Below are positions 14,895 through 41,645 of a stretch of DNA of 64,000 nt, in pieces (position 1 is the stretch's first letter; each line of letters opens with the position of its first letter). The position numbers and the translations under genes were made by a program. The notes below the pieces were generated by a model. It had not been told where the DNA came from. It worked only from the letters and a program-made list of their open reading frames with translations, and did no database searches. The DNA lies in IMG/VR virus record IMGVR_UViG_3300033073_001332, positions 64,001 to 128,000 of that record; one strand, given 5' to 3'. The DNA comes from a virus. Taxonomy: Duplodnaviria > Caudoviricetes.

Positions 14895-15647
14895 TTATTG
14901 ATTATGTATTTTTCTTAAAGTATCTAAATATAATGTTTTATATTTTTTTAGATATGACCTTATTTCTTTTGTGTTAAGGTTAGTCATTTCTCTTAAGGTT
15001 AGTAATACAATATTTTTATTGAATTTATTATTGTCGTTACCTATAAAAATATTCCCATAATCCTCAAAAAGTTCAATTAAAGCGTACCCTAACTTACTTT
15101 CATTATCTTGTAGGTCTGTATCGTTTACATATTTTTTCAAATCGTTTAAAAAAACGTCTATAATCTTTTCAGCATCTATTTTTTCAAACTCTAAATAATA
15201 GACCATATCCGGTCTATTTTCTAATGTACCGGATATGTCCTCATATGAAATTTTTCTATTAGTTTCTTTTTGGTCTTTCAGAATTTGACCCATCAAGTAA
15301 TTTTTACAGATGGTACCAAAATAAGAATATGCTTTTTTATTTTTGGCAGGTTTAAACTTATCGACTTTAGTCATTAGGAAAGAATGGGTATCACTATGAA
15401 TATCATTATAATTCATATCCTTCCTATAAAGTTTATACCTTCTTATGATTGATTCAATCATCTTATCAAGAGGTTCTCTTAAAAATTGGTTATATATAAC
15501 TTCTTTTTCTTGTTTGGTGTCGGCTATTATATAAGCCTTTACCGCCTCTTCTTCACGTACATCGAAGTAATTATTTTTTTTTACTTTCTTTTCCGTCTTA
15601 TTCTCTTCGTAAGTAACTTCTAAAACAGTTCCTGACGATACAAACAT
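14895..15647 (-). CDS. Late-transcription sigma factor, T4 gp55-like
   Basis: Sigma region-2-like KFKPAKNKKAYSYFGTICKNYL resembles gp55-family NFD..K..NPFAYFTQ; N-terminal NYF motif; 250 aa. Confidence 0.65.
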   Translation of the reverse strand: MFVSSGTVLEVTYEENKTEKKVKKNNYFDVREEEAVKAYIIADTKQEKEVIYNQFLREPLDKMIESIIRRYKLYRKDMNYNDIHSDTHSFLMTKVDKFKPAKNKKAYSYFGTICKNYLMGQILKDQKETNRKISYEDISGTLENRPDMVYYLEFEKIDAEKIIDVFLNDLKKYVNDTDLQDNESKLGYALIELFEDYGNIFIGNDNNKFNKNIVLLTLREMTNLNTKEIRSYLKKYKTLYLDTLRKIHNQ

Positions 15648-16453
15648 TATATTTCCTGTGGTTCATATTTTATATTTCTATCTGATGTGAAAAAATGTTC
15701 TTTTTTCGCGGCTTCAATCCAAAAAGTAACCTCATCATCTGAAATTTTATTCTGACCATTTTTGTAATTCCAGAATATTGAACCTTCTCTTAGGTTCATG
15801 TGTTTGTAACCTATTCTAGGAATAGTCATGATTTGTGCTGAGTTATAAGTCAATCTTAATAAAAATTCATATACAAACGTAAGTTTGAATGATGGTTTAA
15901 ATCCTCCATTATCTTGGTATGTTGATTTTTTCACAACCATTCCACTTGTTTGGAAGTTTTGATAATTCATCAAAACGTCATTAGTTAAATAACCAATTTC
16001 AGAATTTAAACTGGCTGCAAATGTTGCTTCATTTGTAAATCCAACAAACATACCTTTTTCGTCAGTATCGACAACTAATGGTAAGAATGCATCTACTTCA
16101 GGATAAGCGTTAATAAATCTTTTTACATTTTTAAACCAAATTGTAGAGTACTCATCATCAAATTCTAAAACACTAATCCATTCCTCTTTTGAGTTTTCAA
16201 CACCAAGATTGACTTGTGAACAAAAATCAACTTTACCTTTATTTTCCACAAAGTTCATAGTAAGACCACTATAATCGAATGCCTCTAACAAAGTTTTTAG
16301 ACCATCTTCATCTGAATGTACCACAATAACTTCTGAAGGTTTTGTATCCTGAATTTGTAAGGATTTAATTGCTCTTTCATAAAACAAATCGAAATCTTTT
16401 TGTTTCGATGAGTTAATCGGGATAATTACCGATACGTTTAAATTATTTTCCAT
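15647..16453 (-). CDS. Glycosyltransferase family 2
   Basis: VSVIIP, EVIVV, NLGV, LEFDD (DxD-like) GT-A motifs. Confidence 0.8.
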   Translation of the reverse strand: MENNLNVSVIIPINSSKQKDFDLFYERAIKSLQIQDTKPSEVIVVHSDEDGLKTLLEAFDYSGLTMNFVENKGKVDFCSQVNLGVENSKEEWISVLEFDDEYSTIWFKNVKRFINAYPEVDAFLPLVVDTDEKGMFVGFTNEATFAASLNSEIGYLTNDVLMNYQNFQTSGMVVKKSTYQDNGGFKPSFKLTFVYEFLLRLTYNSAQIMTIPRIGYKHMNLREGSIFWNYKNGQNKISDDEVTFWIEAAKKEHFFTSDRNIKYEPQEI

Positions 16454-16457
16454 AATA

Positions 16458-17525
16458 TTATCTTGTTTCTTCTGTTACGTTTAGTTTATTTAGTTGTTCT
16501 TTAAATACCTCTTTTCGTGTTGTAAAATATTCATTGAATAATTCTAAAACTGAAGATTCAAATTTAGATTTATCTGAGTAAGATGATGACGTTTTTTCCA
16601 TCCCTTCGTATAAACTTTCAGAAATATTATCCTCTAACCAATTTTGAATGAAATTTGCAATAACATCTACAATATCATTAAATTGATTTAACCAAATACC
16701 ATTTTCTTCTGTTATCCATTCTGGTACCATGTTAGGAATTTTACCTAAAACAGGAGTACCGACTAACATAGATTCTAATGGGTATGTACCAAATGATGAT
16801 TCATTATCAACCCACACACTCAAAAATGATTCTTTTAAGAATTTAGAAAAATCATTCATGTTAATACCTCTCATATCTCTAAAGGTAATCCATCTATATT
16901 GTGGATACTTTAGATAAAAAGTTTTAATAATTTTAGCTGTATCTCTTTGGTCGCGAGTATGAATAGAAATAATTGGTTTTGAAGGTTTATCTTTTTTAGA
17001 AAAAACTTCAGAAATGTAAGGTGTTAATACATCAACACTAACATTTTTCATTACTTCTGAAATATATTTTTTCTGATTTTCAGACGTTGTAATACATTTG
17101 AAAAATCCAAGTTGTGTCCATGTAACACCAGGTGCTAATGTTTCTAACATATGGTCATATGCTTGACACAATACTATTTTACCACATGGTAAGTTTTTAA
17201 TTTGTTCCATAACATGACCATAAAGTTCAGGTAATACGATTATATCTTCAGGTGAAATTGCTAAATTTTGACCATCGATACATTGATGAGGTAATTCCAT
17301 ATAACTTTCGTTTAACCAAGATGAAACACCTTCATACTCTTTTGTTTCGTGGATAATGATTGGGTTATAACCTGAATTTTTCAAGGTTAATGCCATATCA
17401 TAAATGTATTTTATGGATGCTTTTGGGTTACCTTTAGTATCCTGTACTAAAAAATAAATTCTTGCAGTTTTTTCTTCTAAGTTTTTAATCGAACCTTCAA
17501 TTTTTGTAATTTTATCTAATTCCAT
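16458..17525 (-). CDS. GT-B fold glycosyltransferase (GT4-like)
   Basis: DIIVLPE, ESSFGTYPLESMLVGTPV (Ex7E-like). Confidence 0.75.
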   Translation of the reverse strand: MELDKITKIEGSIKNLEEKTARIYFLVQDTKGNPKASIKYIYDMALTLKNSGYNPIIIHETKEYEGVSSWLNESYMELPHQCIDGQNLAISPEDIIVLPELYGHVMEQIKNLPCGKIVLCQAYDHMLETLAPGVTWTQLGFFKCITTSENQKKYISEVMKNVSVDVLTPYISEVFSKKDKPSKPIISIHTRDQRDTAKIIKTFYLKYPQYRWITFRDMRGINMNDFSKFLKESFLSVWVDNESSFGTYPLESMLVGTPVLGKIPNMVPEWITEENGIWLNQFNDIVDVIANFIQNWLEDNISESLYEGMEKTSSSYSDKSKFESSVLELFNEYFTTRKEVFKEQLNKLNVTEETR

Positions 17526-17528
17526 TTT

Positions 17529-17810
17529 TTATAGTTTTTTGATTATTTTATTTAATAATAGAGTATTAAAAGAAATTTTGAATGGTATTGATAAATCTTT
17601 TGCGGAGTGCATACCAAGTGATTCATCAACACCTTCTCTTTCAGTTAATACAACATCCAATAATAACTTAAATGTTTCATATCTAGTAACACTTATTTGT
17701 TCGTTTTCAGTTTCCCCCGATGGGACAACAATTTTAGATTTTAATAGACTTACTTGAGTCTCTAACTCATCTACATCTATGTAGTAATTTTCATTTAAAA
17801 AAGGAATCAT
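17529..17810 (-). CDS. Hypothetical protein
   Basis: 93-aa ORF, coupled to neighbours. Confidence 0.6.
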   Translation of the reverse strand: MIPFLNENYYIDVDELETQVSLLKSKIVVPSGETENEQISVTRYETFKLLLDVVLTEREGVDESLGMHSAKDLSIPFKISFNTLLLNKIIKKL

Positions 17811-18460
17811 AATATAATATCATTTATTAATTTATCTAACTCACCCAATTGTGTTATTTTGTAATTATGATTCATAGTATCATTATATGGTGTAACATAT
17901 TGAACTACAATTTTTTCAGATGGATGTTCGTTTATTAGGTTTGGGTTTGCTGTTAATAAAATATCAACACTATCCCACATATCGTTTATAGTTGCATTAG
18001 AGTAAAACTTTATATTTTCAATTAAACAACCAAATTTAGAAAGGAAAAATAATGTAGCTGGTTTTGACCTACCTATCTCGTCTGATATAATATAAATCTC
18101 AAACTTTTCTCTGTTAGATATGTAAAACTCATTCAACTCATTAAATGAATAAGTTTCTGTTGAACCAGCGTGTCCAAACAATTGCATTGGGAAATCTTCA
18201 AACATGAAGTCATATAGTTCGTCATCGGATTTGAATGTAAAATGGTTTTTTAAATCAAAACTATTAATTGGTTCTATAATTTCATATTTAAAATCCTCCA
18301 CTTTTTCCTCCAAACTGGTATTACCTGAAATGTCAATTTTGAAAGTTTGGTTTGAGTTTTCTGATTCGTAATTTTCAATCATATGTTTTTCATATAATTG
18401 TTTAAATTTACCAAACGTATCCCTTAAGACCCCATTAACTTCAATCCCTATTCTCTTCAT
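17807..18460 (-). CDS. 5'(3')-deoxyribonucleotidase-like HAD protein with degenerate motif I
   Basis: RIGIEVNGVLRD (canonical IGIDxDGVL), C-terminal PYN. Confidence 0.6.
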   Translation of the reverse strand: MKRIGIEVNGVLRDTFGKFKQLYEKHMIENYESENSNQTFKIDISGNTSLEEKVEDFKYEIIEPINSFDLKNHFTFKSDDELYDFMFEDFPMQLFGHAGSTETYSFNELNEFYISNREKFEIYIISDEIGRSKPATLFFLSKFGCLIENIKFYSNATINDMWDSVDILLTANPNLINEHPSEKIVVQYVTPYNDTMNHNYKITQLGELDKLINDIIL

Positions 18461-19178
18461 CGTATTTTTGTAAAATTTTACTAATTAATGGATTTCTTAC
18501 GTTTTTAGCATTTCTGAAATCATATATACCAACATCAGGAATATTATTAAACCTTTGTAAGGCATCATATAATCCTGATTGTTTTTTATCTTTATATCTG
18601 TCAGTTTGCTCTAAGTCTCCTGATATGAAGAATTTACTATTGAATCCGATTCTTGTCAATAGTAATTTCATTTGGTTTGGAGTTGCGTTTTGACCCTCCT
18701 CAAATATTAATATCGAGTTGTCAATATTCATACCCCTCATATAAGCCAATGCAAATACCTCAATAATTTCAGCTTCTTTTAATTTTTCTCTAGCCTCTTT
18801 ACCTATAATTTTATTTAATAGATAATAAGACGGGAAAATATATGGGTCTAATTTTTCTTCTAAATTCCCTGGTAAAGAACCAAGTTTTTCTTCAGCTTCA
18901 ACTGCTGGTCTAACAATAATTAATTTTTCATAAGCATTATTAGGGTCCATTAATAAATCAACCGCAGCCTTCATTGAAATATAACTTTTACCAACACCTG
19001 CGGGACCCGAACATATTGTTATCTGATTAGAAACTAAAGTATCGTAATACTCTTTTTGATTATCAGATAAAAACTTGCTTTTTTGTTTTCTTTTAATTAC
19101 CGAATTAATAAAATCTTTTCTCGATATTGTCTTCGGTATTACCGGCTCCTCCGATTGTGCTACTTTCCTTCTTGTCAT
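18441..19178 (-). CDS. phoH: PhoH-family ATPase
   Basis: GPAGVGKS, RPAVEAEEKLGSLPG, AYMRG, EGQN, LTRIG, GDLEQTD. Confidence 0.95.
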   Translation of the reverse strand: MTRRKVAQSEEPVIPKTISRKDFINSVIKRKQKSKFLSDNQKEYYDTLVSNQITICSGPAGVGKSYISMKAAVDLLMDPNNAYEKLIIVRPAVEAEEKLGSLPGNLEEKLDPYIFPSYYLLNKIIGKEAREKLKEAEIIEVFALAYMRGMNIDNSILIFEEGQNATPNQMKLLLTRIGFNSKFFISGDLEQTDRYKDKKQSGLYDALQRFNNIPDVGIYDFRNAKNVRNPLISKILQKYDEENRD

Positions 19179-19186
19179 TTAATGAA

Positions 19187-20164
19187 TTATTTATTTTTAT
19201 AGAAATCCAACCAATATTCAATCATTTCATCTAACATAGATTCAAACGTATATTTAGGTTCCCATCCTAAGTTATATTTTAGTTTTGAAGAATCACCTTT
19301 TAAGTCATGTAACTCTTCAGGTCTAAAATGTTTTTCATCTATTATAATATAATCATAATAGTTTAAACCTAATTTTGAAAATGTGTATTCACATAAATCT
19401 TTTACTGAGTGTGATATTCCAGTTGCACATACATAATCATCTGGTGTGTCTGTTTGTAACATTAACCACATGGCTTCAACATAATCTTTTGCGTGTCCCC
19501 AATCTCTTGTTGCATCTAAATTACCGATATGTAATTTATCTTGTAATCCCAAACTAATTCTAACCGCCGCCTTTACAACCTTATTGGTTACGAAATTTGT
19601 TCCTCGTCTTGGTGATTCATGGTTAAATAAAATACCATTCCATATTTTCATTCCATATGAGTTACGATAGTTTCTACAAATGTTATATGAAAAAACTTTA
19701 GCACATCCATATGGTGATACAGGATTCATTGGGGTGGATTCTCTTTGAAATCCATCCTCATCAATTGTATTACCAAACATCTCAGAAGATGATGCTTGAT
19801 ATATTTTAATGTCTTTATTTAGTAACTTAACCGCTTCTAATAAATTTAAAGTTCCTAAACCTGTAACATTTGCTGTGTAAATAGGTTGGTCAAATGAAAT
19901 TCTAACATGGGATTGTGCTGCTAAATTATAAATTTCAATAGGTTCAATTTCTTGTATTACTCGAGTTAATGATGATAAATCTGTTAAATCTGCGTAATGC
20001 AATTTTAATTTATCAAAAACAGAATCAATTCTACTTGTTTGATTTTCAGACACTGAGTTTCTTTTCAAAGTTCCATGAACTTCATAACCTTTTTCTAAAA
20101 GGAATTCTGCGAGATATGAACCATCTTGTCCATTAATCCCTGTTATAAGTGCTACTTTCTTCAT
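19187..20164 (-). CDS. gmd: GDP-mannose 4,6-dehydratase
   Basis: ALITGINGQDGSYLAEFLL, LAAQSHV, YQASSSEMFG, SPYGCAK, LFNHESPRRG, RDWGHA. Confidence 0.97.
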   Translation of the reverse strand: MKKVALITGINGQDGSYLAEFLLEKGYEVHGTLKRNSVSENQTSRIDSVFDKLKLHYADLTDLSSLTRVIQEIEPIEIYNLAAQSHVRISFDQPIYTANVTGLGTLNLLEAVKLLNKDIKIYQASSSEMFGNTIDEDGFQRESTPMNPVSPYGCAKVFSYNICRNYRNSYGMKIWNGILFNHESPRRGTNFVTNKVVKAAVRISLGLQDKLHIGNLDATRDWGHAKDYVEAMWLMLQTDTPDDYVCATGISHSVKDLCEYTFSKLGLNYYDYIIIDEKHFRPEELHDLKGDSSKLKYNLGWEPKYTFESMLDEMIEYWLDFYKNK

Positions 20165-21309
20165 TCGTTAATTATTGATACAATAGTTTGAATTTCATCT
20201 AAAGTCAATCCTTGATGATTAGGGATATAAAATCCATATTGGTTAATTAATTCGCAGTTTTTTAATGATACTTCCCCGTATTTTTTTACCCACATCGGTT
20301 TTTTAGACATATCACCAGCAATGAGAGGTCTGACTTCTATATTTTTAGACATCAATTTATTAACAATCATGTCCCTGTTTTCGTCAACTATCGGATATGC
20401 GAAATTTGAAACAAAATCACCTTCTTTTTGGTTAACATTAATTTTGTTATTTTTGATTAGGTTTTTATAATGATTAAAGTTTAGGTTTCTTTTTTCACCA
20501 TAACCATCAAGTTTATCTATTGCCATTAGTCCAATAAAGGCTTGTAAATCAGTTGCTCTCAAATTAAAACCAGGTAAATAGAAGGTATATAATGAATCAA
20601 ACTCACTTACTTTATTTTCATTTCTAAGTTTATTTTGAATGTGTTTTGGTAAGTCTCTATCCCACCCATGACTTCTCATCATCAAAAGTGAGTAATAGAA
20701 ATCTTTATCATTAGTATTAATGAATCCACCTTCAATTGTACTTAAATGATGACCAAAATACATTGAGAAAAATGATGCAAACCCAAAAGAGCCGAGATAT
20801 TGTTCTTGGTATTTTGACCCCATACTTTCACAAACATCTTCTAATAATATTACATTATACTTTTCACAAAGTTCAACAACTTTTTCCATGTTGGGAACTA
20901 ACCCTAATGGTGAAACAAGTATCATACATGATGGGTCATGATTTTTAAATAACTCCTCTAAATGATTTAAATCACATGACAAATCTTCTAAATTACAATC
21001 ACAGAGAATTGGTTCCATACCTAACAACATAGGTGAGCTAACATCAGTTGCCCAACTTAATCCTGGTACAACAATTTTATTATTTCTTAATTTGTCAGTG
21101 TGAAGTAAAGCCGCAAGTGCAAGTAAAATTGCTGAAGACCCTGAGTTTACGTAAACAGAATATTTTGTTCCAATCTTTTCAGCCCATTTTGATTCTAACT
21201 CCCAAGTTAAATTCCCTTTTGTTAATCTAGGAATTTCATCTTGTCCTAACCATTCGATTAATTTATTAATGTCGTTTTTATCTATTGTGTCTTTAACTAA
21301 CTTTATCAT
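20161..21309 (-). CDS. colD: PLP-dependent GDP-4-keto-6-deoxymannose 3-dehydratase (ColD-type DegT family)
   Basis: VNSGSSA, EDVCESMG, FSMYFGHHLSTIEGG (His in place of the DegT catalytic Lys), RSHGWDR. Confidence 0.8.
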   Translation of the reverse strand: MIKLVKDTIDKNDINKLIEWLGQDEIPRLTKGNLTWELESKWAEKIGTKYSVYVNSGSSAILLALAALLHTDKLRNNKIVVPGLSWATDVSSPMLLGMEPILCDCNLEDLSCDLNHLEELFKNHDPSCMILVSPLGLVPNMEKVVELCEKYNVILLEDVCESMGSKYQEQYLGSFGFASFFSMYFGHHLSTIEGGFINTNDKDFYYSLLMMRSHGWDRDLPKHIQNKLRNENKVSEFDSLYTFYLPGFNLRATDLQAFIGLMAIDKLDGYGEKRNLNFNHYKNLIKNNKINVNQKEGDFVSNFAYPIVDENRDMIVNKLMSKNIEVRPLIAGDMSKKPMWVKKYGEVSLKNCELINQYGFYIPNHQGLTLDEIQTIVSIINE

Positions 21310-22210
21310 AATACGTTTCGTAAACTATTTTTATACCATCACTAAGTGGTGTGAATTTAAAATCCGGAAATAAACCCTTGAACTTATCTATTGATACATC
21401 TTTTCTGAACTGACCATTAGGTTTTTCTTTGTCCCATAAAATCTTTATGTTTTTATTATCTGTAACATCAAGTGCGATTTCTGCCATTTGTCTAATTGAA
21501 AGATTTTCTTCCGTAGCTACATTAAAACTATCTGTAATATTATTTTCAATAGTTTGTTTTATTATTTCTGCAAAATCACCAGCATACATAAATTGTCTTA
21601 ATGGTGTGCCATCACCATATAATGTAATATTATCTAATCCATTTTTCTTTGATTCATGTATCTTTTTAATCAAAGATGTTAAAAAATGACTTTTATTCTC
21701 ATCGTCTTTATCTTCAATACCATAAAGATTACATGGTATTAAATACTGGTAGTCTAATTTATATTGTTGGTTATAAGCATCAATCTGTGCTCCCATTGAA
21801 CGTTTTGAATACCCATATGAAAAATTTGTTATGGTTGGGGGTCCTTCGTGTAACATCGACTCATCCATTGGGTAATGTTTAGCAACATCAGGGTAAATAC
21901 AAGTACTTAAAATACCTATAAATTTTTTAACTTTAAAAACCCTCGAATATTCCACCATTAAAGTGTTCATCAATACATTTTGAGTAAAGTATTCTGCGGG
22001 GTGGTTGAGGTTATCGATTATACCTCCAACTCTTGCTGCTAGATGTACAACAACTTCTGGTTTATGTTTTAAAAACATTCTTTTTACACCATCTTCACTA
22101 GTTAAATCATAATCTTTTGATGATATATAGATAGCGTCAGGTAATATCTTTTTAAGATACTTACCAACTAATCCTGACCCACCCGTCACTAATATTTTTT
22201 TATTTTCCAT
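21293..22210 (-). CDS. fcl: GDP-L-fucose/colitose synthase (epimerase-reductase, Fcl/ColC)
   Basis: GGSGLVG, HLAARVGGI, STCIYP, YGYSKR, PCNLYG, GDGTPLRQF. Confidence 0.9.
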   Translation of the reverse strand: MENKKILVTGGSGLVGKYLKKILPDAIYISSKDYDLTSEDGVKRMFLKHKPEVVVHLAARVGGIIDNLNHPAEYFTQNVLMNTLMVEYSRVFKVKKFIGILSTCIYPDVAKHYPMDESMLHEGPPTITNFSYGYSKRSMGAQIDAYNQQYKLDYQYLIPCNLYGIEDKDDENKSHFLTSLIKKIHESKKNGLDNITLYGDGTPLRQFMYAGDFAEIIKQTIENNITDSFNVATEENLSIRQMAEIALDVTDNKNIKILWDKEKPNGQFRKDVSIDKFKGLFPDFKFTPLSDGIKIVYETYYDKVS

Positions 22211-22212
22211 TG

Positions 22213-24534: not shown

Positions 24535-24538
24535 TTTT

Positions 24539-25108: not shown

Positions 25109-25110
25109 TT

Positions 25111-32436: not shown

Positions 32437-32492
32437 TTAATATTATTTTTAATAAAAATAGATTAATAGAATTAAAAATGAAGATTAAGGTG

Positions 32493-33263
32493 TTATAATA
32501 TAACCCAATTTTCACAATACACGTCCTTTGTATCCATACCTTGTTTAGCAGGACCAAACCAATTTTTAGGTGATACTACAATTTTGTTTTCATTCGTATT
32601 TAACCAAGAACCCCACCAAGAAAAAGATGAGTTTGCAATTATATTGTTTTCACACAAAGACATTAAATATAAATCTTCATAATCTTCATTATTTTCACAA
32701 TAAACAACTTTATCTAAAAAGTTAAAATTTTCTTTACACCACCCAATGTCGTCAGAAAATATAAAAAATGTTTTATCGTCACCAATTATACCAATGGATT
32801 TTTTATAGTAATCGATATCTTGGACAGGGTGGTGTTCTGACAAATTAAGATAGTCACCTCTTCTGATATGTATTGAACAACTATTATTTAATTTATCGCT
32901 ATATTTTTTTTTAAGTTCATTAATCACTTCATCACATAAAAACAATTCTAAAATTTTTTCTCTGTTGTGATTAAAATATTTTTCAGATTGAAAATACCCA
33001 TGAATGTATGTTGGTAACATAAAATCAGGTATTGGAGAAAAGTGAAAATGAGGTTCGTAATAAACTTGTGTAGTGTTAAAGTTTGAGTCAAATGTGATAT
33101 TCTTTAAAATATTATTTGTGTAATTCGTTATTGGTTTGTGAACCACTTGAATGTTATTTGGGTTAATTACGAATTTTTCACCCAAATCAATAGATTTAGA
33201 ATACCCAGCAGCAATTTGAAATAAGTAATTACCAAGACCCCCCATCAAAAAAGAAGAGACCAT
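32493..33263 (-). CDS. GT11 alpha-1,2-fucosyl/colitosyltransferase
   Basis: GGLGNYLFQ, GYFQSEKYF, HIRRGDY, FSDD, ANSSFSWW. Confidence 0.92.
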   Translation of the reverse strand: MVSSFLMGGLGNYLFQIAAGYSKSIDLGEKFVINPNNIQVVHKPITNYTNNILKNITFDSNFNTTQVYYEPHFHFSPIPDFMLPTYIHGYFQSEKYFNHNREKILELFLCDEVINELKKKYSDKLNNSCSIHIRRGDYLNLSEHHPVQDIDYYKKSIGIIGDDKTFFIFSDDIGWCKENFNFLDKVVYCENNEDYEDLYLMSLCENNIIANSSFSWWGSWLNTNENKIVVSPKNWFGPAKQGMDTKDVYCENWVIL

Positions 33264-33265
33264 AC

Positions 33266-34078
33266 CTATAACGTTTTTATAAAATTATAGACATGTTCGT
33301 CTGGTAACAAAAAGTTCTTACACTTTTCAAAATTCTCTTTAATTGACTCTAATTTGGACTCATATAATGATTCATTACAACTATCTAAAATAGATTCTAA
33401 CTCCTCCATATTGTTAAAAATTAACATACCGTCTACATTAAAGAAATCACCGATAGAAGGACAACCCCAATAGATTGGAATTGTACCTGTGGCAAAACAA
33501 TCGATAAGTTTTTCAGTAAACCAATAATCCCTTTTACAATTTTCAATAACAACGGAAAATTTATAATCTTTTAACCCTTCTATTTTAAATTCAACAGGAG
33601 TATAACCTCTACCGAATACATCCATTTTACTTCCAAACTTTTGAATTACTTCATGTCTTAATTTGTGTCCATCAGTAAATGTTTTATTGGATGATATTAT
33701 TGAAATGTTTTTGTTTTTGTTGTAGATTTTTTGTTCTTCTTTAGGAATCCAACAACAACCAAATGGTATAAATTGTGTTGGGTAAAAAATATCTAATAAG
33801 GTCTTTTCGTGTGTTAAAATATAATCAAACTTCATTAAATTGTTTTTCACATATTCATAGTGTTGAGGTGCAACACACATAGGTTCAATTAACCAAGCAA
33901 TTTTATTTTTACTTGGTGGTATATTTGATGATAAAAAATTGTCGGTGATGACGACATTGTCTTCTTTATTTAATGGACCTCTATCCCAACTAAAATTTTC
34001 AGATACTTGAAAATCTGAACAATATCCTAATATCGAGTGTGAAAATGTATTATCTATTATTTTTATACGTTCTTTCAT
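33266..34078 (-). CDS. GT10-like fucosyltransferase
   Basis: YKFSVVIEN, FTEKLIDCF..GTIPIYWG. Confidence 0.8.
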   Translation of the reverse strand: MKERIKIIDNTFSHSILGYCSDFQVSENFSWDRGPLNKEDNVVITDNFLSSNIPPSKNKIAWLIEPMCVAPQHYEYVKNNLMKFDYILTHEKTLLDIFYPTQFIPFGCCWIPKEEQKIYNKNKNISIISSNKTFTDGHKLRHEVIQKFGSKMDVFGRGYTPVEFKIEGLKDYKFSVVIENCKRDYWFTEKLIDCFATGTIPIYWGCPSIGDFFNVDGMLIFNNMEELESILDSCNESLYESKLESIKENFEKCKNFLLPDEHVYNFIKTL

Positions 34079-34800
34079 CTAACCAATTTTTCGTATGGTT
34101 TATATCCTCTTATGATTTGATTCATTTTTTGAACCTCAGGAAAATTAACTTTGTGTTCGTTTAACGGGTTACTTTCATTATATATGTAGTTTACGTCGTA
34201 CATAAATTTATAGTGTTCTGGTCCACACATTTCAACCATAGGAAACATAAATGCTAAATCACATGCAATTTTCCAATAGTTATTGTTTGAGTCTTTTAAA
34301 TCCTCTTGTTTTATACTTCTCCATAAAAATGATTTCCAAGTTCTTAAGTGTGATAATGTAAATGGTTTTTGTCTTATATCCTCAAACGTGGTATGTGGTT
34401 GTGAAAAACCTGGTCTACCATCATGGTACTTAAAGCTTCCATTTGCTAACCAAACATCACCTGAATTATATGTGTCAACGACTCTTTGAAAAACTTTTGA
34501 ATCGGGTAACCAATCATCCCCATCAACTTCAATACAGATATCTTCATCAGAAATATCATAATCGCCACGAATAACTTGGTCATAATTTCCTGCTTGGTAC
34601 ATTTTTGTTTTATTTTCGATTAACACAAAACGATTATCGTTTTTGATAAATTCTTTAATTTTTTCTACCGTATTGTCTGTTGAAATGTCATCAGTTATAA
34701 AACATCTGAAATCTTTGTATGTCTGTGACATTATTGTCGATAATGAACGCTCAATAAATTTTTCACAATTGTAAGATGTGGTTAAAACAATTACTCCCAT
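34075..34800 (-). CDS. Glycosyltransferase family 2
   Basis: YNCEKFI, DDISTD, VDGDDW. Confidence 0.88.
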   Translation of the reverse strand: MGVIVLTTSYNCEKFIERSLSTIMSQTYKDFRCFITDDISTDNTVEKIKEFIKNDNRFVLIENKTKMYQAGNYDQVIRGDYDISDEDICIEVDGDDWLPDSKVFQRVVDTYNSGDVWLANGSFKYHDGRPGFSQPHTTFEDIRQKPFTLSHLRTWKSFLWRSIKQEDLKDSNNNYWKIACDLAFMFPMVEMCGPEHYKFMYDVNYIYNESNPLNEHKVNFPEVQKMNQIIRGYKPYEKLVR

Positions 34801-34803
34801 TTT

Positions 34804-36441
34804 TTAATTTAAAATTTTAATATATTCCTCTTTTATTTTTTTTGCTACCTCATCAGAGTTAAACTTATTTACATCAGAAGGAACTTCGTGTTTATTTTTA
34901 TCTATTATATTACCATAGTTATCGACATTGTAAATCCATCCTGGTTTACCACATAACCACCCTTCTATTGTTGTTCTACCTAAAAGAATTCCTGCGGTCT
35001 CACTACAATTCTTTACATATTCCTCAACTTTATTGGTTGCTCCAAAATGTTTAACATGTGGATTGTCTAATAACTCAGGCAAGTAATTTGATTTGTTTTC
35101 ACCAACTAACCAAAGTTCTTTACCTATTGATTTTGAGTACTCAACTAAATCTCTAATAGTTTTTTCTCGTAAGTAATCAATTGTCCCAACAAATAACACA
35201 TACGGATATATCTTCGTATTTTGAGTATTAAATCTTTTAGTGTCTATTGGATTATAAATAACTTCAGTGTCGGACGAATTAATATTGAAGTTATCAATTA
35301 TATGTTTTTGTATTTCTGGTCTAATACAAATATATTTTTTTATTGATTCATGAATGAACGGATTTTCTAATTCAATTACCTCAGAGTGTATCGTTGATAT
35401 CTTTGGGGTGTTTGGATACATCTCGGTTATTTGCTTTGAAATTGGGTTGTGTTGGACATGCATTATGTCAAAGTTAACGTCTGACATTTTATACATCATA
35501 TTTGGTTGACTTGTAACTACACCTTGAGGGGTGTTGAATCCCCATTTACCATCGCCCATTTTATAACCTGGTGGATTAGAGAAGGGTAATACTTTAATTC
35601 CTTGTTGAGTTGCTAACTTTGACAACGGACCTTCAATATCTGAAAGTACGGTAACATCACAATTTAATTTTTTCAAACCTTTAGCTAACTCATAAACATA
35701 CATTTCTGAACCAGTAAATGTTTTAAAAAATAAACAAGACAATAATACTTTGATTGGTGAATCTAATGTTAGGTTTCTTTTTATTTTAATAGGTAAAATG
35801 TCCTTATGTTTTTCTGCGAATACAATTCTATTTTTTTCCCATTCTTCATTTGTTGCTCCGATTGATTTATGTGTTACTCTTACATCATAAATCACCCCAA
35901 CTTTTACATCCTCAATAAAGTTTCTAAATGAAAAATCAACATCATAAAAGTGAAACCCTTTTATTTCTTCATTGAATGTTTGCCTAATGTTATTTTTATT
36001 AATAACAATAAAAAGACCATCAACTAAAACAACATCATCTATTTGATTTCCCAAACTCGATGAGTATTTTGATTCCCATTTTTTACCATCATGTTCGTGA
36101 TTAACAATACCTTTCATTTTTGAAAAATCTTCCCACCACTTTGCAGAAGAAGGTAGTTGTGTTGAACCTGCTAAACCTAAAATTCCATAATTTGGGTTAC
36201 GTTTAAAATGTTTTAAAATTTTACTACCCCAATTTTTACTATCAAAGTAGATGTCATCATGACATAAAACAACAATATCATTTGTTGCTTGTTCTAAAAT
36301 CATGTTGTACGCTTCAGGTAATGAATATTTACCATCATTTTCTATTCCAATAATTTGGGGGTTTGATACCCCACAAGTCTTTTTTAATAGTTCTTTAAAA
36401 CTATCATCAACCTTTCTCGATGAAAATCCTATTGTTATCAT
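34804..36441 (-). CDS. Two-domain glycosyltransferase (GT-A N-terminal, GT-B C-terminal)
   Basis: AYN, HDD, FHFYDVD in first half; TGSEMYVYELA, HSE, NPID, GRTTIEG in second half. Confidence 0.8.
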   Translation of the reverse strand: MITIGFSSRKVDDSFKELLKKTCGVSNPQIIGIENDGKYSLPEAYNMILEQATNDIVVLCHDDIYFDSKNWGSKILKHFKRNPNYGILGLAGSTQLPSSAKWWEDFSKMKGIVNHEHDGKKWESKYSSSLGNQIDDVVLVDGLFIVINKNNIRQTFNEEIKGFHFYDVDFSFRNFIEDVKVGVIYDVRVTHKSIGATNEEWEKNRIVFAEKHKDILPIKIKRNLTLDSPIKVLLSCLFFKTFTGSEMYVYELAKGLKKLNCDVTVLSDIEGPLSKLATQQGIKVLPFSNPPGYKMGDGKWGFNTPQGVVTSQPNMMYKMSDVNFDIMHVQHNPISKQITEMYPNTPKISTIHSEVIELENPFIHESIKKYICIRPEIQKHIIDNFNINSSDTEVIYNPIDTKRFNTQNTKIYPYVLFVGTIDYLREKTIRDLVEYSKSIGKELWLVGENKSNYLPELLDNPHVKHFGATNKVEEYVKNCSETAGILLGRTTIEGWLCGKPGWIYNVDNYGNIIDKNKHEVPSDVNKFNSDEVAKKIKEEYIKILN

Positions 36442-37055
36442 AGACCGGTACTTCCGAAACCTTTATCGTTTCTATCTTTTTCTTTTATTTCTTTAACTTG
36501 TACTAAGTTTACTAATTTACCATTCACAACAGGACATAAAACCGCTTGACCGACCTTTTGACCTTTTTCTATTTTTACTTTTTGGTTTGTTGTGTTAAAG
36601 ATAATGACTTTGATTTCTCCTTGATATCCACTATCAACCGTACCTGGTGAATTTAAAACCATTAGACCCTGATTTAACGCTAAACCACTTTTTGACCTTA
36701 CTTGTATTTCATATCCCTCAGGGATATCAAATCTCAATCCTGTTGGTACTAATGCCCTATCAAATGGATGTAACCAAACATCTTCATTTGCTCTTAAATC
36801 AAAACCTGAGTCTGATTCATATGCGTATGATGGATTTTTATTTTCACTATCATTAACGTAATTTAAATTTACCTTAATAAATTCCGATGACATTTCATCA
36901 TTTAAATCCTCAAAATGTTTATTTAAATCTTCCATATTAATACCCAAAGATTTAAACATCTCTTCAGGACTATTCATATCAATATTTCCTAACTTAGATT
37001 GTAAATCTTTTAACATTTTGAATTGCTCTTTCGCTTCTCTAAATCCTTTAAACAT
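36438..37055 (-). CDS. dut: Trimeric dUTPase with N-terminal extension
   Basis: SGFDL, RSKSGLA, GTVDSGYQGE, GQ, RNDKGFGSTG. Confidence 0.95.
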   Translation of the reverse strand: MFKGFREAKEQFKMLKDLQSKLGNIDMNSPEEMFKSLGINMEDLNKHFEDLNDEMSSEFIKVNLNYVNDSENKNPSYAYESDSGFDLRANEDVWLHPFDRALVPTGLRFDIPEGYEIQVRSKSGLALNQGLMVLNSPGTVDSGYQGEIKVIIFNTTNQKVKIEKGQKVGQAVLCPVVNGKLVNLVQVKEIKEKDRNDKGFGSTGL

Positions 37056-37056
37056 A

Positions 37057-37785
37057 TTACTTTAATGATTTTAATTTTAAAATTGCGTTTATTAAAACAT
37101 CAACGTCTTTTTCACAATACTCAACAATTTCAGATAACCTGTTTTGTGTCCAATAAGCATCATGAACCATAGAACCATTTATTGGACCATCTTTTGGTGT
37201 GGGAATATCCAAACAAGTACACATTAAATCTAAAGACCCGATAGCGGTATATGCACCATATTGCCATATTTCTTTAGTGTCAATTGCTTTAACCTCCCAA
37301 GGCTTAGTATCGTAAGAAGGTAACATTTTAGATGGTCTTATTCCGTTGATAATCATACGTTTTGCCAACATAGGGATATCAAAGTTTTTTAGATTATGAC
37401 CACATAAGTAGAAATCTAATTTACTACATCTATCTAAAAGTGTTCTTACCCCCATCAATAAGTCATATTCATTATCTCCTGAAAAACTTTGTTTTTTTAC
37501 TTCACCATTTTCCATAACAAATGCAACAGAAACACAAACAATTTTTGCAAACTCAGGAACTAATGCTGTTCGTCTAGAATAAACATCATTCATTTTTTGC
37601 ATTTCTTCCTCAAGACCATTTGTTTCCACATTGTCTTCAGGAAATCTTTTTAAGAACCAATCGAAATATTTAACGAATTGTTCTGCAATTTTTGGGTTAG
37701 ATTCTTGACAAGTTGACCAATCTTTACAAAGACCAACGGTTTCAATATCTAAAAATAAAATTTTGTTAATAGGTACGTTTATCAT
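37057..37785 (-). CDS. Stand-alone DnaQ-like 3'-5' exonuclease (PolB-exo2 type)
   Basis: FLDIET, GHNLKNFDIP, YCEKDV. Confidence 0.88.
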   Translation of the reverse strand: MINVPINKILFLDIETVGLCKDWSTCQESNPKIAEQFVKYFDWFLKRFPEDNVETNGLEEEMQKMNDVYSRRTALVPEFAKIVCVSVAFVMENGEVKKQSFSGDNEYDLLMGVRTLLDRCSKLDFYLCGHNLKNFDIPMLAKRMIINGIRPSKMLPSYDTKPWEVKAIDTKEIWQYGAYTAIGSLDLMCTCLDIPTPKDGPINGSMVHDAYWTQNRLSEIVEYCEKDVDVLINAILKLKSLK

Positions 37786-38996
37786 TTTACTAAGGATTTA
37801 TATAATTCAGCTCTATCTTTTGTTACTTTATTTAAATCGTATGTGTCTTTAACGGTTTCATACAATCTTTGTCCTAAATCATATGCAAAATTAGGGTTAT
37901 CTATAAGTTTTTTCATGTACTTCGCCCAATCACTATGACTTCTTGCTTCATCAACAAGTAATGCGTTACCATCTGTAAACTCACCATTTTTAAGTGCGTG
38001 TTTTAAATCAATGGTATATGGTCCGACATTTGATGCGATAATTGCTTTTTTGTAAAAACCAGCTTCAATAACTTTAAGTTGTGATTTAACTCTGTTAAAT
38101 ACGTGATTTTTAATTGGAGCTAAAGATACATCAAACCATTTATAGTTGTTAGCATAACTTGTTACTGGTTTTGTCCAAACACGATTATAGAATGGTAATT
38201 CGTTGGATTTATATTCTTCTTCTGAGAACTTCATCAAATATTCTTTGTGTGATGGGTCGACTAATTTATAGTTGTCTGTAAAAATTTCTTCATATCGAGC
38301 CCAAACCGTTTCTTCAGGTTTAATCGGTCTTTGTTTTTGTTCCCCTGTTTGTTGGTTGATTTCTGTTACGGTTCCTCTAATATCAAACCCACACAAATAC
38401 ATACTAAATTTATCTTTCATAGGTGTCAATTTGTTCATTGTCCCATCAAGTAATTTTAAATCATGTAAATGCGATGAACCACCTAACCACCCAAATCTTA
38501 ATTTATCTGAAGGTTCAGACTTTGCATTAAACTGAGATTCTTTAGGGTTTATGGCATTAGGTAATACATAAACGTTTTTATTAAATTTTGAAATTTCTTT
38601 AGCAAAAATAGAAGTTGTTGTTGTAACGTGACCTGCAACTTTTAGATTGTTAATTATTTTTTTATGAAGTTCTGTTTGTACTACCATTTGGTGGACAGGG
38701 TGTTCCTTAGTTGGTAACCAATAGTCATCTAAATCCATAATAGTCACAATACCTAAACTATTTAGTTTTTGGATTAGGTTTACTGAATTTTCATAATCAT
38801 GACCTACGGTTCTATGGAAATGAACAATATCATATTGCTTCCAATAATTTAAATCATTCACTCTTGGCTCGTAATCTATATCAACATGGAATTCATCTGA
38901 ATGGTTATTTTGTAACATAACGTGGGGGTCAACACTCCTAAATTTCCCTACACCCGTTTTGTCTGATGGTAATACTAATACTTTTATTAAACTCAT
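37782..38996 (-). CDS. GT-B glycosyltransferase (GT4-like)
   Basis: DLDDYW, PNAI, GWLGGSSH..DL, FNRVKSQLKVIEAG, ASNVGPY. Confidence 0.85.
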   Translation of the reverse strand: MSLIKVLVLPSDKTGVGKFRSVDPHVMLQNNHSDEFHVDIDYEPRVNDLNYWKQYDIVHFHRTVGHDYENSVNLIQKLNSLGIVTIMDLDDYWLPTKEHPVHQMVVQTELHKKIINNLKVAGHVTTTTSIFAKEISKFNKNVYVLPNAINPKESQFNAKSEPSDKLRFGWLGGSSHLHDLKLLDGTMNKLTPMKDKFSMYLCGFDIRGTVTEINQQTGEQKQRPIKPEETVWARYEEIFTDNYKLVDPSHKEYLMKFSEEEYKSNELPFYNRVWTKPVTSYANNYKWFDVSLAPIKNHVFNRVKSQLKVIEAGFYKKAIIASNVGPYTIDLKHALKNGEFTDGNALLVDEARSHSDWAKYMKKLIDNPNFAYDLGQRLYETVKDTYDLNKVTKDRAELYKSLVK

Positions 38997-39034
38997 ATTT
39001 TCAATTTTTACAATAAAAGTAGTTGATTAAAAAC

Positions 39035-39063
39035 AAAAAATCCACCCCTTTTGAGGGTGGATT
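39035..39063 (-). terminator. Rho-independent terminator separating the late operon from the glycan locus
   Basis: Minus strand AATCCACCCTC-AAAA-GGGGTGGATT followed by TTTT. Confidence 0.85.
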
Positions 39064-39083
39064 AACTATTGAGTTTTATTTAT

Positions 39084-41594: not shown

Positions 41595-41608
41595 CTGAGC
41601 TTTTACCT

Positions 41609-41634: not shown

Positions 41635-41645
41635 CATAAAAAAGA

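Follow-up and report, generated by a model that had tools for sequence, protein, structure and literature searches.

Layout and Gene Content of the Block

The locus raises the question of what a tailed phage builds, and on which acceptor, with ten glycosyltransferase (GT) genes and two nucleotide-sugar pathways packed into one run of genes. Genes for a portal, a gp23-like capsid protein, a DNA polymerase, a helicase and a tail sheath were found on the contig, and the phage represents a very common family of large, lake-derived phages, probably with Bacteroidota hosts. In the window, by which we mean the whole 64,000-nt stretch analyzed here, positions 14895–38996 of the minus strand were occupied by 28 tightly coupled genes in a terminator-free run (Table 1). 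A preliminary description had counted about 25 coupled genes at 15647–38996, where 27 minus-strand ORFs were found; the true end of the block lies one gene further, at a sigma-factor gene. The junctions within 15647–38996 are overlaps or gaps of at most 8 nt, with a 56-nt gap at 32436–32493 as the sole exception.

The ten GT genes carry 11 GT domains, which HMM searches assigned to GT2 (genes at 15647 and 34075), GT1/GT4-like (16458 and 37782), TIGR04372 (22213), MptE/Maf-like PF01973 (28326), STELLO-like (29041), GT11 (32493), GT10 (33266) and a GT2_5+GT4 fusion (34804). A NodU-type O-carbamoyltransferase gene was located at 30856, and the PhoH, dUTPase and PolB-exo-like genes are interleaved with the GT genes. 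The GT2, GT4, GT10, GT11, STELLO-like and carbamoyltransferase families named in the preliminary description are thus backed by HMM matches, whereas its GT9-like transferase was not recovered: no island protein matched GT9, and the only such match was to a 1527-aa protein outside the window. Both of the donor pathways that it had proposed are present, namely a GDP-sugar set (Gmd, 19187; DegT-family ColD-like, 20161; Fcl/ColC-like, 21293) and a CMP-ulosonate set (HAD phosphatase, 23073; NeuB, 23698; cytidylyltransferase, 27658), the latter accompanied by GmhA-like, SDR, TIM-barrel isomerase and class IV aminotransferase genes.

Table 1. Positions in the window of the features of the glycan block and the basis of their assignment.
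Feature	Position	Strand	Basis
Intergenic region upstream of the block	38997..39083	-	Intrinsic terminator 39063-39039, then TAyyTTTa box
GT1b, GT4-like GT-B glycosyltransferase, first gene of the block	37782..38996	-	phrog_7162 E 2.5e-45; weak Pfam GT1
PolB-exo/RNase H-like exonuclease, frame gene	37057..37785	-	PF10108 49 bits; in every relative examined
dUTPase/dCTP-deaminase-like, frame gene with N-terminal extension	36438..37055	-	PF00692 91.7 bits; kept in relatives
Two-domain GT, frame gene (GT2_5 N-terminal, GT4 C-terminal)	34804..36441	-	PF13712 94 bits, PF13439 49.6 bits
Variable cassette, 15.6 kb here	19187..34800	-	Family assignments by HMM and PDB sequence matches
Single-domain Maf/CstII-superfamily transferase, predicted CMP-ulosonate donor, 242 aa	28326..29054	-	PF01973 58.2 bits (cut-off 34.6)
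Gmd, ColD, ColC/Fcl-like (GDP-colitose-type pathway)	19187..22210	-	TIGR01472, ColD 2GMS, Fcl model
PhoH, frame gene at distal cassette edge	18441..19178	-	PF02562 208.7 bits
unk217, unk93, GT1a (GT-B), GT2a (GT2), frame genes	15647..18460	-	Pfam GT1 (weak), GT2
Phage RNA polymerase sigma factor, last gene	14895..15647	-	Atlas score 0.99; Sigma70_r2 E 0.02

A Conserved Frame around an Exchangeable Cassette

Comparison with relatives showed that the locus consists of a conserved frame around one exchangeable cassette, an architecture that is new here. The frame runs in the order GT1b-Exo-dUTPase-GT2_5/GT4 ... PhoH-unk217-unk93-GT1a-GT2a-sigma, and it was found in each of the four full islands and in almost all of the 50 related loci. 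GT1b was matched by at least 7991 metagenomic cluster representatives, and its identity among relatives was 61–95%, compared with 42–90% for the adjacent structural protein p716. By sequence comparison, the frame behaves as a core gene set, with GT1b under strong purifying selection. The predicted model of GT1b gave generic GT4 fold matches and nothing more specific, and GT1a matched a putative GT (PDB 8XSG) with E 1.6e-6. On the distal side, unk217, unk93, GT1a and GT2a were all kept in five of the related loci (L055 and L080–L083).

The cassette starts directly downstream of the GT2_5/GT4 gene, which is 40–93% identical across relatives. In transcription order, it encodes GT2b, GT10, GT11, the carbamoyltransferase, unk287, the STELLO-like GT and the Maf/CstII-like transferase, then the cytidylyltransferase, class IV aminotransferase, TIM-barrel isomerase, SDR, GmhA-like protein and NeuB, and lastly the HAD phosphatase, TIGR04372 GT, ColC-like protein, ColD and Gmd. 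Its size ranged from 0 to 15.6 kb across relatives, and 13 types of first cassette gene were counted among 35 loci. One relative (L080) has no cassette, so that PhoH comes straight after GT2_5/GT4, and L081–L083 carry other cassette content. Among near relatives the cassette is a mosaic of retained and swapped genes; it is hypervariable even between near-identical phages, and its exchange is independent of the frame phylogeny.

Donor Pathways

Gmd was identified as a GDP-mannose 4,6-dehydratase, as it passed the equivalog cut-off of TIGR01472 (419.1 bits; cut-off 415). For the DegT-family protein of the cassette, the best PDB match was ColD (2GMS, E 2e-55, against approximately 1e-28 for perosamine synthases). 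A GHH motif of the query aligned with SHH of ColD, and histidine was kept in place of the Schiff-base lysine at ColD His188, a position marked by the H188N mutant entry 3B8X. At the level of sequence, the protein is hence a PMP-dependent 3-dehydratase of the ColD type, which bears out the earlier proposal of colitose. The ColC/Fcl-like protein scored 197 bits with the Fcl equivalog model, under its cut-off of 500. In the second pathway, the NeuB-family synthase (PF03102, 206 bits; alignment ending at model position 278 of 329) and the CTP_transf_3 cytidylyltransferase (PF02348, 102 bits) fell under the NeuB/PseI and PseF equivalog cut-offs, and so they are assigned to family only. Donor and transferase sets matched in 26 loci, where the CMP pathway was accompanied by the CstII-like transferase and the pathway for GDP-6-deoxyhexose by GT10 and GT11.

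The Maf/CstII-Like Transferase

The preliminary description had argued for protein glycosylation from a Maf-like transferase. This enzyme resembles both Maf (5MU5) and the Campylobacter GT42 enzymes CstII and Cst-I (1RO7/1RO8, 2P2V) in its PF01973 domain, its predicted fold and the CMP-ulosonate pathway adjoining its gene. Its predicted model (pLDDT 87.9) gave CstII as the top Foldseek matches (E 3e-8), with TM values of 0.52–0.55 both ways over the full length. Maf was found at rank 11 (E 7e-7; sequence match E 2.7e-4), and this match involved the central domain only, covering part of a 632-residue chain with a TM of 0.23 normalized to the target. The GT42 profile PF06002 matched weakly in sequence, at 17.7 bits under a cut-off of 25.

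The catalytic domain of Maf (MAF_flag10/DUF115, PF01973) is thus present, while the three-domain architecture of approximately 600 aa is absent from this 242-aa protein and from the 120 homologues listed, which span 137–280 aa. The N- and C-terminal flanking domains of Maf are thought to bind flagellin. No flagellin gene was found near the Maf/CstII-like gene, which lay in the context of phage glycan islands in 26 viral loci, closely trailed there by CMP-transferase and NeuB genes. The short family gave two matches in 185,579 species genomes, one of them in the same kind of island, and by these searches it appears almost confined to phage-like contigs. A single-domain protein of this size is similar to CstII, whose acceptor is a glycan, and different from the approximately 630-aa Maf, whose acceptor is a protein. 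Since the Maf flanking domains are missing, no protein acceptor is implied, and the enzyme could cap a glycan instead. The earlier argument from a Maf-like enzyme is weakened accordingly.

Solubility and Export Genes

The annotation and transmembrane prediction that had been proposed as a check assigned the families given above and detected no convincing transmembrane segment in any island protein (KD19 maximum 1.8), in agreement with the claim that the enzymes are soluble. Export or polymerase genes elsewhere in the genome would have spoken against virion glycosylation and were searched for. In the 219.5-kb contig (G000, approximately 75% complete by CheckV), no ORF exceeded 4 hydrophobic segments, neither Wzx (PF01943) nor Bac_transf (PF02397) was matched, and all ABC matches (PF00005) were sub-threshold. 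Its sole 4-segment ORF looks spurious and resembles a low-complexity shadow ORF. In a 99%-complete relative (G002), the limit was 3 hydrophobic segments per ORF, and ORFs with 4 or more were likewise missing from two 100%-complete phages (G005 and G006) that belong to other clades and carry the Maf/NeuB module. No polytopic membrane protein and no priming transferase, flippase, polymerase or ABC permease was found in these four genomes of three clades. Soluble enzymes together with the lack of export genes indicate that the glycan is assembled in the cytoplasm without phage-encoded export. Host O-antigen and polysaccharide loci, too, normally contain soluble GTs, and the initiation and export steps could be provided by the host.

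Expression of the Block

The start of the sigma-factor gene overlaps the stop of GT2a. The gene was matched in the atlas by viral sigma-factor clusters in 29 of 30 cases, and it recurs at the island edge in G001–G005, L022 and L024–L028. In the intergenic region upstream of the block, the terminator scan gave a strong terminator, followed by a conserved TAyyTTTa box approximately 15–20 nt ahead of the GT1b start codon. The positions of the hairpin and box were kept in 6 of the 7 relatives compared, while the remaining spacer diverges. The TATTTATA late-type motif was absent from this region. Transcription of the block would precede that of the late genes, probably start at a host-type promoter and include the nucleotide-metabolism genes and the sigma factor, which would then turn on TATTTATA-type late promoters. 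Expression of the block thus seems to come ahead of that of the structural genes, a timing that is neutral at best for glycosylation of the virion.

A Candidate Sequon in Flanking Virion-Type Proteins

In ten outer virion-type proteins chosen for the largest excess, the motif [ST]-G-x-T was observed 102 times against 16.8 expected (z 21). As controls in the same ten proteins, z was 1.9 for the reversed motif and −0.1 for the Bacteroidota periplasmic sequon D[ST][AILVMT]. The strong enrichment was missing in immuto, Mel-JY01, G005 and G006, four phages without the frame GTs. Of these, the first three have homologues of the capsid, sheath and sigma factor of the present phage, and G006 has those of the capsid and sheath. 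Enrichment was also missing in phi92, which has a distant GT1b homologue. As the association of frame and motif was seen in a single clade only, it is inseparable from shared ancestry. Furthermore, G005 and G006 contain the Maf/NeuB/GT10/GT11 module without the motif, and the cassette chemistry is therefore not tied to this sequon.

Comparison with Known Systems

Polymorphic glycan clusters are already known in jumbo phages and were read as putative host-surface diversification (Iyer et al. 2021, section 3.4.10; PMC7824862). As in the clusters of Iyer et al., several GT families and sugar-nucleotide enzymes were found here in one polymorphic cluster. The clusters of P-SSM2, S-SCSM1 and S-SCSM2R (PMC7824862, PMC12801897) are similar in having many soluble GTs, including GT10, GT11 and GT2, nucleotide-sugar enzymes and KDO-type genes, and in being polymorphic between related large aquatic myophages. 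Unlike them, the present locus has a fixed frame with a single insertion point for a 0–15.6 kb cassette, co-transcription with a phage sigma factor, colitose-type and NeuB/HAD/CMP-ulosonate pathways and a phage-restricted CstII/Maf-like transferase. In addition, the absence of export genes was checked here in complete genomes, and the hosts are probably Bacteroidota, not cyanobacteria.

Bacterial O-antigen and capsule serotype loci, such as that for the colitose-containing O-antigen of E. coli O55, likewise place donor genes (Gmd/ColD/ColC) beside matching GTs and show conserved flanks, a hypervariable center and horizontal exchange of whole cassettes. They differ from the present locus, as neither a Wzx/Wzy- nor an ABC-dependent system was found in the four phage genomes: an initiating phosphoglycosyl transferase, flippase, polymerase, chain-length regulator and ABC transporter were all absent.

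The gene clusters for chlorovirus PBCV-1 Vp54 (PMC7019647) and the mimivirus fibril also consist of virus-encoded soluble GTs and donor pathways, use no ER/Golgi or membrane export step and vary by lineage. Soluble virus GTs without membrane export were likewise found here at the gene level. In those viruses, the glycans and their attachment to protein were chemically proven, whereas the present system is known from its genes, its enzymes are not orthologous and its host is bacterial. Cytoplasmic GTs encoded by a tailed phage are shared with mycobacteriophages, in which the capsid and tail are modified (Freeman et al. 2023, PMC10527164). The mycobacteriophages have only 2–4 GTs, no donor pathways or cassette, actinobacterial hosts and proof by mass spectrometry, unlike the present case.

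What the Block Builds

A fixed frame, a swappable middle and no export machinery together make it probable that the product is a variable glycan built within the infected cell. We favor phage-autonomous, cytoplasmic glycosylation of phage-encoded proteins, most likely those on the outside of the virion, with a probability of roughly 0.45, which places it ahead of remodeling of the host envelope. The five frame GT domains (GT1b, GT2_5/GT4, GT1a and GT2a) would draw on nucleotide sugars common in the host to initiate and extend a conserved inner glycan on a presumably phage-encoded acceptor. The unusual donors would come from the cassette: sugars of the GDP-colitose or GDP-fucose type, and an ulosonic acid, CMP-activated and possibly aminated, for which the NeuB-type synthase, HAD phosphatase and cytidylyltransferase would start from a sugar phosphate. 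Capping by GT10, GT11, the CstII/Maf-like transferase, the STELLO-like GT and the carbamoyltransferase would then give a serotype-like, exchangeable outer part. Soluble sets of GTs and donor enzymes in chloroviruses, mimivirus and mycobacteriophages have been proven to glycosylate virion proteins. To our knowledge, proven phage modification of host surface glycans always proceeds via membrane proteins, as in Gtr systems, O-acetyltransferases and Wzy-type polymerases. The lack of membrane steps in the four genomes also speaks for the virion reading, as do, more indirectly, the candidate sequon and the near confinement of the short Maf-like family to phage-like contigs. Further GT domains elsewhere in the genome point the same way: outside the window, the 1527-aa protein that contains GT25, GT4, GT9 and methyltransferase domains is encoded next to a collagen-like fibre gene.

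The alternative that survives best, possible but somewhat doubtful, is that the phage GTs and donor pathways modify, at the cytoplasmic face, undecaprenyl-linked intermediates that the host makes for LPS O-antigen, capsule or the general O-glycan of Bacteroidota. A host initiating transferase, flippase or ABC exporter, and ligase would display the altered glycan, whereby superinfection by rivals would be blocked or progeny would not be trapped on debris. GT10, GT11, CstII-like enzymes and colitose are classic features of LPS/LOS outer chains, to which the NodU-type carbamoyltransferase can be added, and they count against a virion acceptor and for an envelope one. The same applies to the Maf-like enzyme devoid of the Maf protein-recognition domains. 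Cassette exchange does not follow the frame phylogeny, a trait shared with serotype loci, and the hypervariability of the cassette fits selection on a host surface antigen, as published (PMC7824862); remodeling of this kind has also been the published reading of polymorphic GT clusters in jumbo cyanophages (PMC7824862; PMC12801897). An operon shared with early/middle-type genes behind a pre-late, host-type promoter suits the envelope too, as does the presence of the Maf/NeuB/GT10/GT11 module in phages without the virion sequon signal (G005, G006). However, the four genomes of three clades yielded no component for priming, flipping, polymerization or ligation, and a new 10-GT repeat unit would have to suit the Wzx and Wzy of the host, which as a rule are specific. 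Moreover, phages that probably have different hosts conserve the five frame GT domains as core genes, which calls for a conserved acceptor. As such an acceptor is more easily encoded by the phage than by the host, the conserved frame favors glycosylation of the virion.

It is unlikely that the targets are split, with phage DNA or another non-protein acceptor, such as a small molecule or lipid, as the substrate of the frame GTs and a separate product made by the cassette. The frame GTs are indeed interleaved with dUTPase, exonuclease, PhoH and a possible nucleotidase-like gene, GT1b homologues belong to a cluster of four GTs in lytic coliphages (phi92 and rV5-like phages), and new glycosylated DNA bases continue to be discovered (PMC13326640). 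However, neither a ThyA-like pyrimidine hydroxymethylase nor a TET/JBP dioxygenase was found in the contig, at least five GT domains with two donor pathways go far beyond any known DNA glycosylation system, and the translational coupling of the entire block and its lack of terminators suggest one pathway. General metabolic support by auxiliary genes with no dedicated common product, such as a boost of the host nucleotide-sugar pool, is very improbable. Scattered sugar-metabolism genes are indeed carried by many large aquatic phages, but here synteny within the frame is strict, the genes show translational coupling, strong purifying selection acts on GT1b and matched sets of donors and transferases occur together in 26 loci.

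Organization of the Phage and of the Glycan Block

The window belongs to a large myophage and spans bases 64001-128000 of its contig of 219,553 bp (~30% G+C), which is classed as linear in its record and was estimated by CheckV to be 75% complete. Its T4 gp23-like capsid protein shares ~42% identity with the capsid proteins of an uncultured huge phage, of Microcystis phage Mel-JY01 and of the Flavobacterium "immuto" phages. The glycan block consists of 28 minus-strand ORFs running from 38996 to 14895, of which the junctions overlap or leave a gap of at most 8 nt, with the sole exception of one 56-nt gap. A terminator scan detected a single strong minus-strand terminator directly upstream of the block, and none inside it. 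The gene assignments obtained by HMM searches are listed in the table below. They bear out the preliminary description in its approximately ten glycosyltransferases (GTs) and two donor pathways; a GT9-like gene that it placed inside the island was not confirmed there, and it mentioned neither the interleaved nucleotide-metabolism genes nor the terminal sigma factor.

Features of the window, with the genes of the glycan block in order of transcription
Feature	Position (start or range)	Strand	Remark
Portal	5-1483
T4 gp23-like capsid protein	5938-7776
Family-B DNA polymerase	46313-49186
Helicase	51781-53544
Tail sheath	55443-58655		1070 aa
u247	40851-41594	-	first gene of upstream operon
Terminator	39063-39039	-	strong
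GT4-like GT-B (GT1b)	37782	-	phrog_7162
PolB-exo-like exonuclease (Exo)	37057	-
dUTPase	36438	-
GT2_5 + GT4 fusion (GT2_5/GT4)	34804	-
GT2	34075	-
GT10	33266	-
GT11	32493	-
NodU-type carbamoyltransferase	30856	-
unk287	29996	-	287 aa, no assignment
STELLO-like GT	29041	-
Maf-like protein	28326	-	PF01973
PseF/KdsB-like cytidylyltransferase	27658	-
Class IV aminotransferase	26693	-
Xylose-isomerase-like TIM barrel	25926	-
SDR	25111	-
GmhA-like SIS isomerase	24539-25180	-	listed start GTG
NeuB	23698	-
HAD phosphatase	23073	-
TIGR04372 GT	22213	-
Fcl/ColC-like	21293	-
ColD-like	20161	-
Gmd	19187	-	above equivalog cut-off
PhoH	18441	-
unk217	17807-18460	-	no assignment
unk93	17529	-	no assignment
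GT-B GT (GT1a)	16458	-
GT2 (GT2a)	15647	-
Phage sigma factor	14895-15647	-	250 aa

No match to Pfam or PHROGs was obtained for unk93, unk217 and unk287. The N-terminus of unk217 (IGIEVNGVLRD) resembles, as judged by eye, that of HAD proteins or 5'(3')-deoxyribonucleotidases, with the catalytic Asp residues of such a start replaced by Glu and Asn; this protein without an HMM match may be an inactive or altered nucleotidase. The listed start of the GmhA-like gene runs 70 nt into the SDR gene, and its true start is probably located further downstream.

A Conserved Frame with an Exchangeable Cassette

Fifty loci were retrieved from relatives through p716, the structural protein adjoining the island (42–90% identity). 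In all but a few of them the order GT2_5/GT4, dUTPase, Exo, GT1b and five small genes, with p716 divergent, was constant. Four full islands were compared, in which GT1b, Exo, dUTPase and GT2_5/GT4 on one side and PhoH, unk217, unk93, GT1a, GT2a and the sigma gene on the other enclosed, as a fixed frame, a variable cassette. From p716 to the end of the sigma gene these four islands measure 11.2–20 kb versus 26.7 kb in the window, and one relative (L080) had no cassette, PhoH following GT2_5/GT4 directly. Near relatives with flanks 80–94% identical lacked the carbamoyltransferase, the STELLO-like GT, unk287 and the class IV aminotransferase, and their cassette GTs and cytidylyltransferase were just 38–66% identical to those of the window. 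Other cassettes encode methyltransferases, a class III aminotransferase, a glyoxalase-like protein, and GT2_4 and GT7C enzymes. The first cassette gene fell into 13 clusters (≥60% identity) among 35 loci, one of which was common to phages with a frame gene 77% and 45% identical, respectively, to that of the window, indicating that cassettes move independently of the frame. For GT1b, at least 7991 metagenome cluster representatives were found, the top 120 with 84–90% identity; the family is thus very abundant and GT1b strongly constrained.

Through the Maf-like family, 26 loci were found. There, the Maf-like gene is closely followed by genes for the CMP-transferase, NeuB and mostly also HAD, usually with GT10, GT11, Gmd and Fcl-like genes in the same locus. 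In the module of the distant-clade phage G005, a B12-binding radical-SAM enzyme and a TylC3-type sugar C-methyltransferase were observed (L025:7558-9540 and L025:13043-14326), suggesting that phages make branched or C-methylated deoxysugars.

Donor-Sugar Pathways

The top PDB matches of the DegT-family protein were to ColD (2GMS, E = 2e-55), with perosamine synthases far behind (~1e-28), and a His is retained at the position of ColD His188. Judged from sequence, Gmd, ColD and ColC plausibly constitute a GDP-colitose route, in which the third, Fcl/ColC-like enzyme is indistinguishable from fucose synthase by HMM. The core of the CMP-ulosonate pathway is composed of the NeuB-family synthase, which is shorter than the NeuB equivalog model, the HAD phosphatase and the cytidylyltransferase; all three fell under the Neu5Ac and Pse equivalog cut-offs. 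The presence of a phosphatase suggests that this pathway uses a sugar-phosphate substrate. Such substrates occur in routes of the Kdn-9-P and Kdo-8-P type. The GmhA-like, SDR, TIM-barrel and aminotransferase genes would tailor the substrate, and the resulting ulosonic acid is probably new.

Absence of Export Machinery

No credible membrane segment was detected in any island protein, in agreement with the soluble nature that had been ascribed to these enzymes. The whole contig contained no polytopic membrane protein, Wzx or Bac_transf, and ABC matches were sub-threshold only. Because the contig is incomplete, the hydropathy scan was repeated on whole relatives. In G002 (291,867 bp, 99% complete), which shares 167 of 227 proteins, hydrophobic segments numbered at most three per ORF, and no ORF had four or more in G005 (190,528 bp) and G006 (264,037 bp, terminal repeats), two 100% complete genomes of other clades that carry the Maf/NeuB/GT10/GT11/Gmd module. 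The absence of a flippase, Wzy/Wzz, ABC exporter and priming transferase, as noted in the preliminary description, extends over these three genomes and the contig. The sole sizeable membrane protein of the window phage is encoded outside the window (G000:C1:190626-191810, +); in this 394-aa protein, ~4 hydrophobic segments are accompanied by a long coiled coil and by an acidic tail rich in repeats, and a 419-aa homologue is present in G002 (40523-41782).

The Maf-Like Protein and Other Glycosyltransferases

Membership of the Maf-like protein in PF01973 is solid, as had been proposed, though its length is only 242 aa, and all 120 homologues listed for it were likewise short and unnamed. Its model (pLDDT 87.9) aligned over the full length to the LOS sialyltransferase CstII (E = 3e-8, TM ~0.53 in both directions), and to Maf (5MU5) by the central domain only. 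In the light of this model, the protein is assigned as a CMP-ulosonate transferase of the Maf/CstII superfamily that lacks the flanking domains of Maf. Such a single-domain protein carries no information on a protein acceptor, which weakens the acceptor earlier deduced from its Maf likeness. With a narrower alignment (A2) of the short family, two matches were found in 185,579 species genomes, one of them within the same kind of island on a phage-like contig; there was no match to the protein in 50,697 cultured-phage records. The GT1b model was of low confidence (pLDDT 63.8) and gave generic GT4 matches, among them lipid-linked (PglA) as well as protein (SdgB) transferases, from which no acceptor can be deduced; a search of the PDB with the GT1b and GT2_5/GT4 sequences gave no matches. 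Outside the window, a 1527-aa protein (G000:C1:40176-44759, -; L109:77-4660) contains GT25-like, GT1/GT4, GT9 (heptosyltransferase-like) and FkbM methyltransferase domains, indicating that the phage has further GT capacity.

Sigma Factor and Timing of Expression

The previously unannotated last gene of the block was assigned by a protein atlas to viral RNA-polymerase sigma factors (score 0.99, 29 of 30 matches), with a weak Pfam Sigma70_r2 match. It is translationally coupled to the last GT. A homologue (25–28% identity) again occupies the last position of the glycan module in the distant clade (G005; L022, L024–L028). The motif TATTTATA, (G/A)TATTTAT(A/C), which is the reverse complement of the T4 late promoter box TATAAATA, occurs 64 times in the contig, with 34 copies located within 60 nt upstream of a same-strand start versus 10 in the opposite orientation. 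It precedes most structural genes, including those of the portal, sheath, p716 and the virion-type protein p689, with sites, for example, at 41600-41640 and upstream of 5, 43837, 49523-50644 (-), 53600 and 55443. The sigma factor of the block probably recognizes it as the late promoter of the phage.

A copy also lies upstream of the small operon (41615) that precedes the island, with the strong terminator at its end. Nearly all relatives have kept the five genes of the operon, which had no Pfam or PHROGs match besides DUF3721 on u247 (37.9 bits). Between the terminator and GT1b there was no late motif, and no full Bacteroidota promoter (TTTG-N19-TAnnTTTG) was found upstream of GT1b; a TAyyTTTa box resembling the Bacteroidota -7 element is present there, its position being kept in six of seven relatives compared. 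The last gene of the block encodes the sigma factor that presumably recognizes the late motif, from which we infer that the block is transcribed before the late genes by the host polymerase. Such timing fits virion glycosylation and host remodelling alike.

A Sequon-Like Motif and the Target of the Glycan

The tetrapeptide [ST]-G-x-T occurred 102 times versus 16.8 in shuffles (z = 21) in the ten outer virion-type proteins with the largest excess, a figure inflated by this selection; several of them flank the island. In the same ten proteins neither the reversed motif (z = 1.9) nor the periplasmic Bacteroidota O-glycosylation sequon (z = -0.1) was enriched, and the island enzymes are practically devoid of [ST]-G-x-T. 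Within the family, all p716 homologues covering most of the protein are motif-rich and nearly all loci have the frame, leaving clade-level contrasts only. Strong enrichment was not seen in immuto, Mel-JY01, G005 and G006, which all lack the frame GTs; most of these phages have homologues of the capsid, sheath and sigma proteins of the window phage. This single clade-level contrast in sequence is consistent with the frame GTs reading [ST]-G-x-T. The motif and the Maf/NeuB-type module are not linked, because G005 and G006 have the latter without the former. The cultured coliphage phi92, which has only a distant GT1b homologue and no enrichment, was uninformative as an independent contrast.

We assign a probability of roughly 0.45 to the block glycosylating the virion or phage proteins. 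This is supported by the membrane step that is entirely lacking in four genomes, by the frame behaving as core genes, by the sequon-like motif, and by precedent. The proven phage modifications of the host O-antigen known so far rely on membrane enzymes. By comparison, the proven soluble virus-encoded sets of GTs and donor enzymes serve virion glycosylation (PMC10527164, PMC7019647). The frame GTs would prime the sequon on tail, sheath and fibre proteins wholly in the cytoplasm, and the exchangeable cassette would add a serotype-like outer part with colitose or fucose, a new CMP-ulosonic acid, and carbamoyl and methyl groups. In this full form, with such a frame-primed, cassette-capped glycan covering the tail, sheath and fibres of freshwater Bacteroidota jumbo phages from an extremely abundant family, the reading is rather unlikely.

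Remodelling of the host surface by the phage enzymes is also conceivable, though we hold it only tentatively. The enzyme families are of O-antigen/LOS type, the cassette turnover is serotype-like, the expression context is early-type and the Maf-like enzyme has no protein-binding domains; two reports on comparable jumbo-cyanophage clusters adopt the same interpretation (PMC7824862; PMC12801897). The missing membrane step and the precedents speak for the virion instead. A split target, or DNA or another target, is improbable, DNA-glycosylation markers (ThyA-like hydroxymethylase and TET/JBP families) being absent, and generic auxiliary metabolism is very improbable.

Large polymorphic glycan clusters in big aquatic phages have already been described, as has virion glycosylation in mycobacteriophages and giant viruses. 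New here are the frame/cassette layout with a single insertion point, coupled to a sigma factor; complete genomes that carry no accompanying export gene; a phage-restricted, CstII-sized transferase of the Maf superfamily; and a colitose-type pathway alongside a non-canonical ulosonate pathway. If the virion is coated, the phage would be the bacteriophage counterpart of the autonomous glycosylation of chloroviruses and mimiviruses, and, among viruses that infect Gram-negative bacteria, the block would be the first "virion serotype locus". Tailed phages of such hosts could then bear complex, strain-variable glycan coats, which would affect adsorption, the avoidance of decoys, grazing, particle stability and any detection by antibodies or lectins. 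If the glycan is instead on the host surface, the phage would be the first lytic one to alter a host surface glycan by means of a complete set of soluble GTs, without contributing any membrane enzyme. In both cases, the architecture is a natural source of donor pathways together with their matching transferases, and the short CstII/Maf-like family is of interest for glycoengineering.

The lytic phage phi92 (NC_023693.1; gp60, gp64-67, gp163-166; L084-L090) encodes an RmlABCD dTDP-rhamnose pathway close to PhoH and four clustered soluble GTs, including two distant homologues of GT1b; its record annotates no function for these GTs. With these genes, phi92 may serve as a tractable cultured model of the acceptor question.
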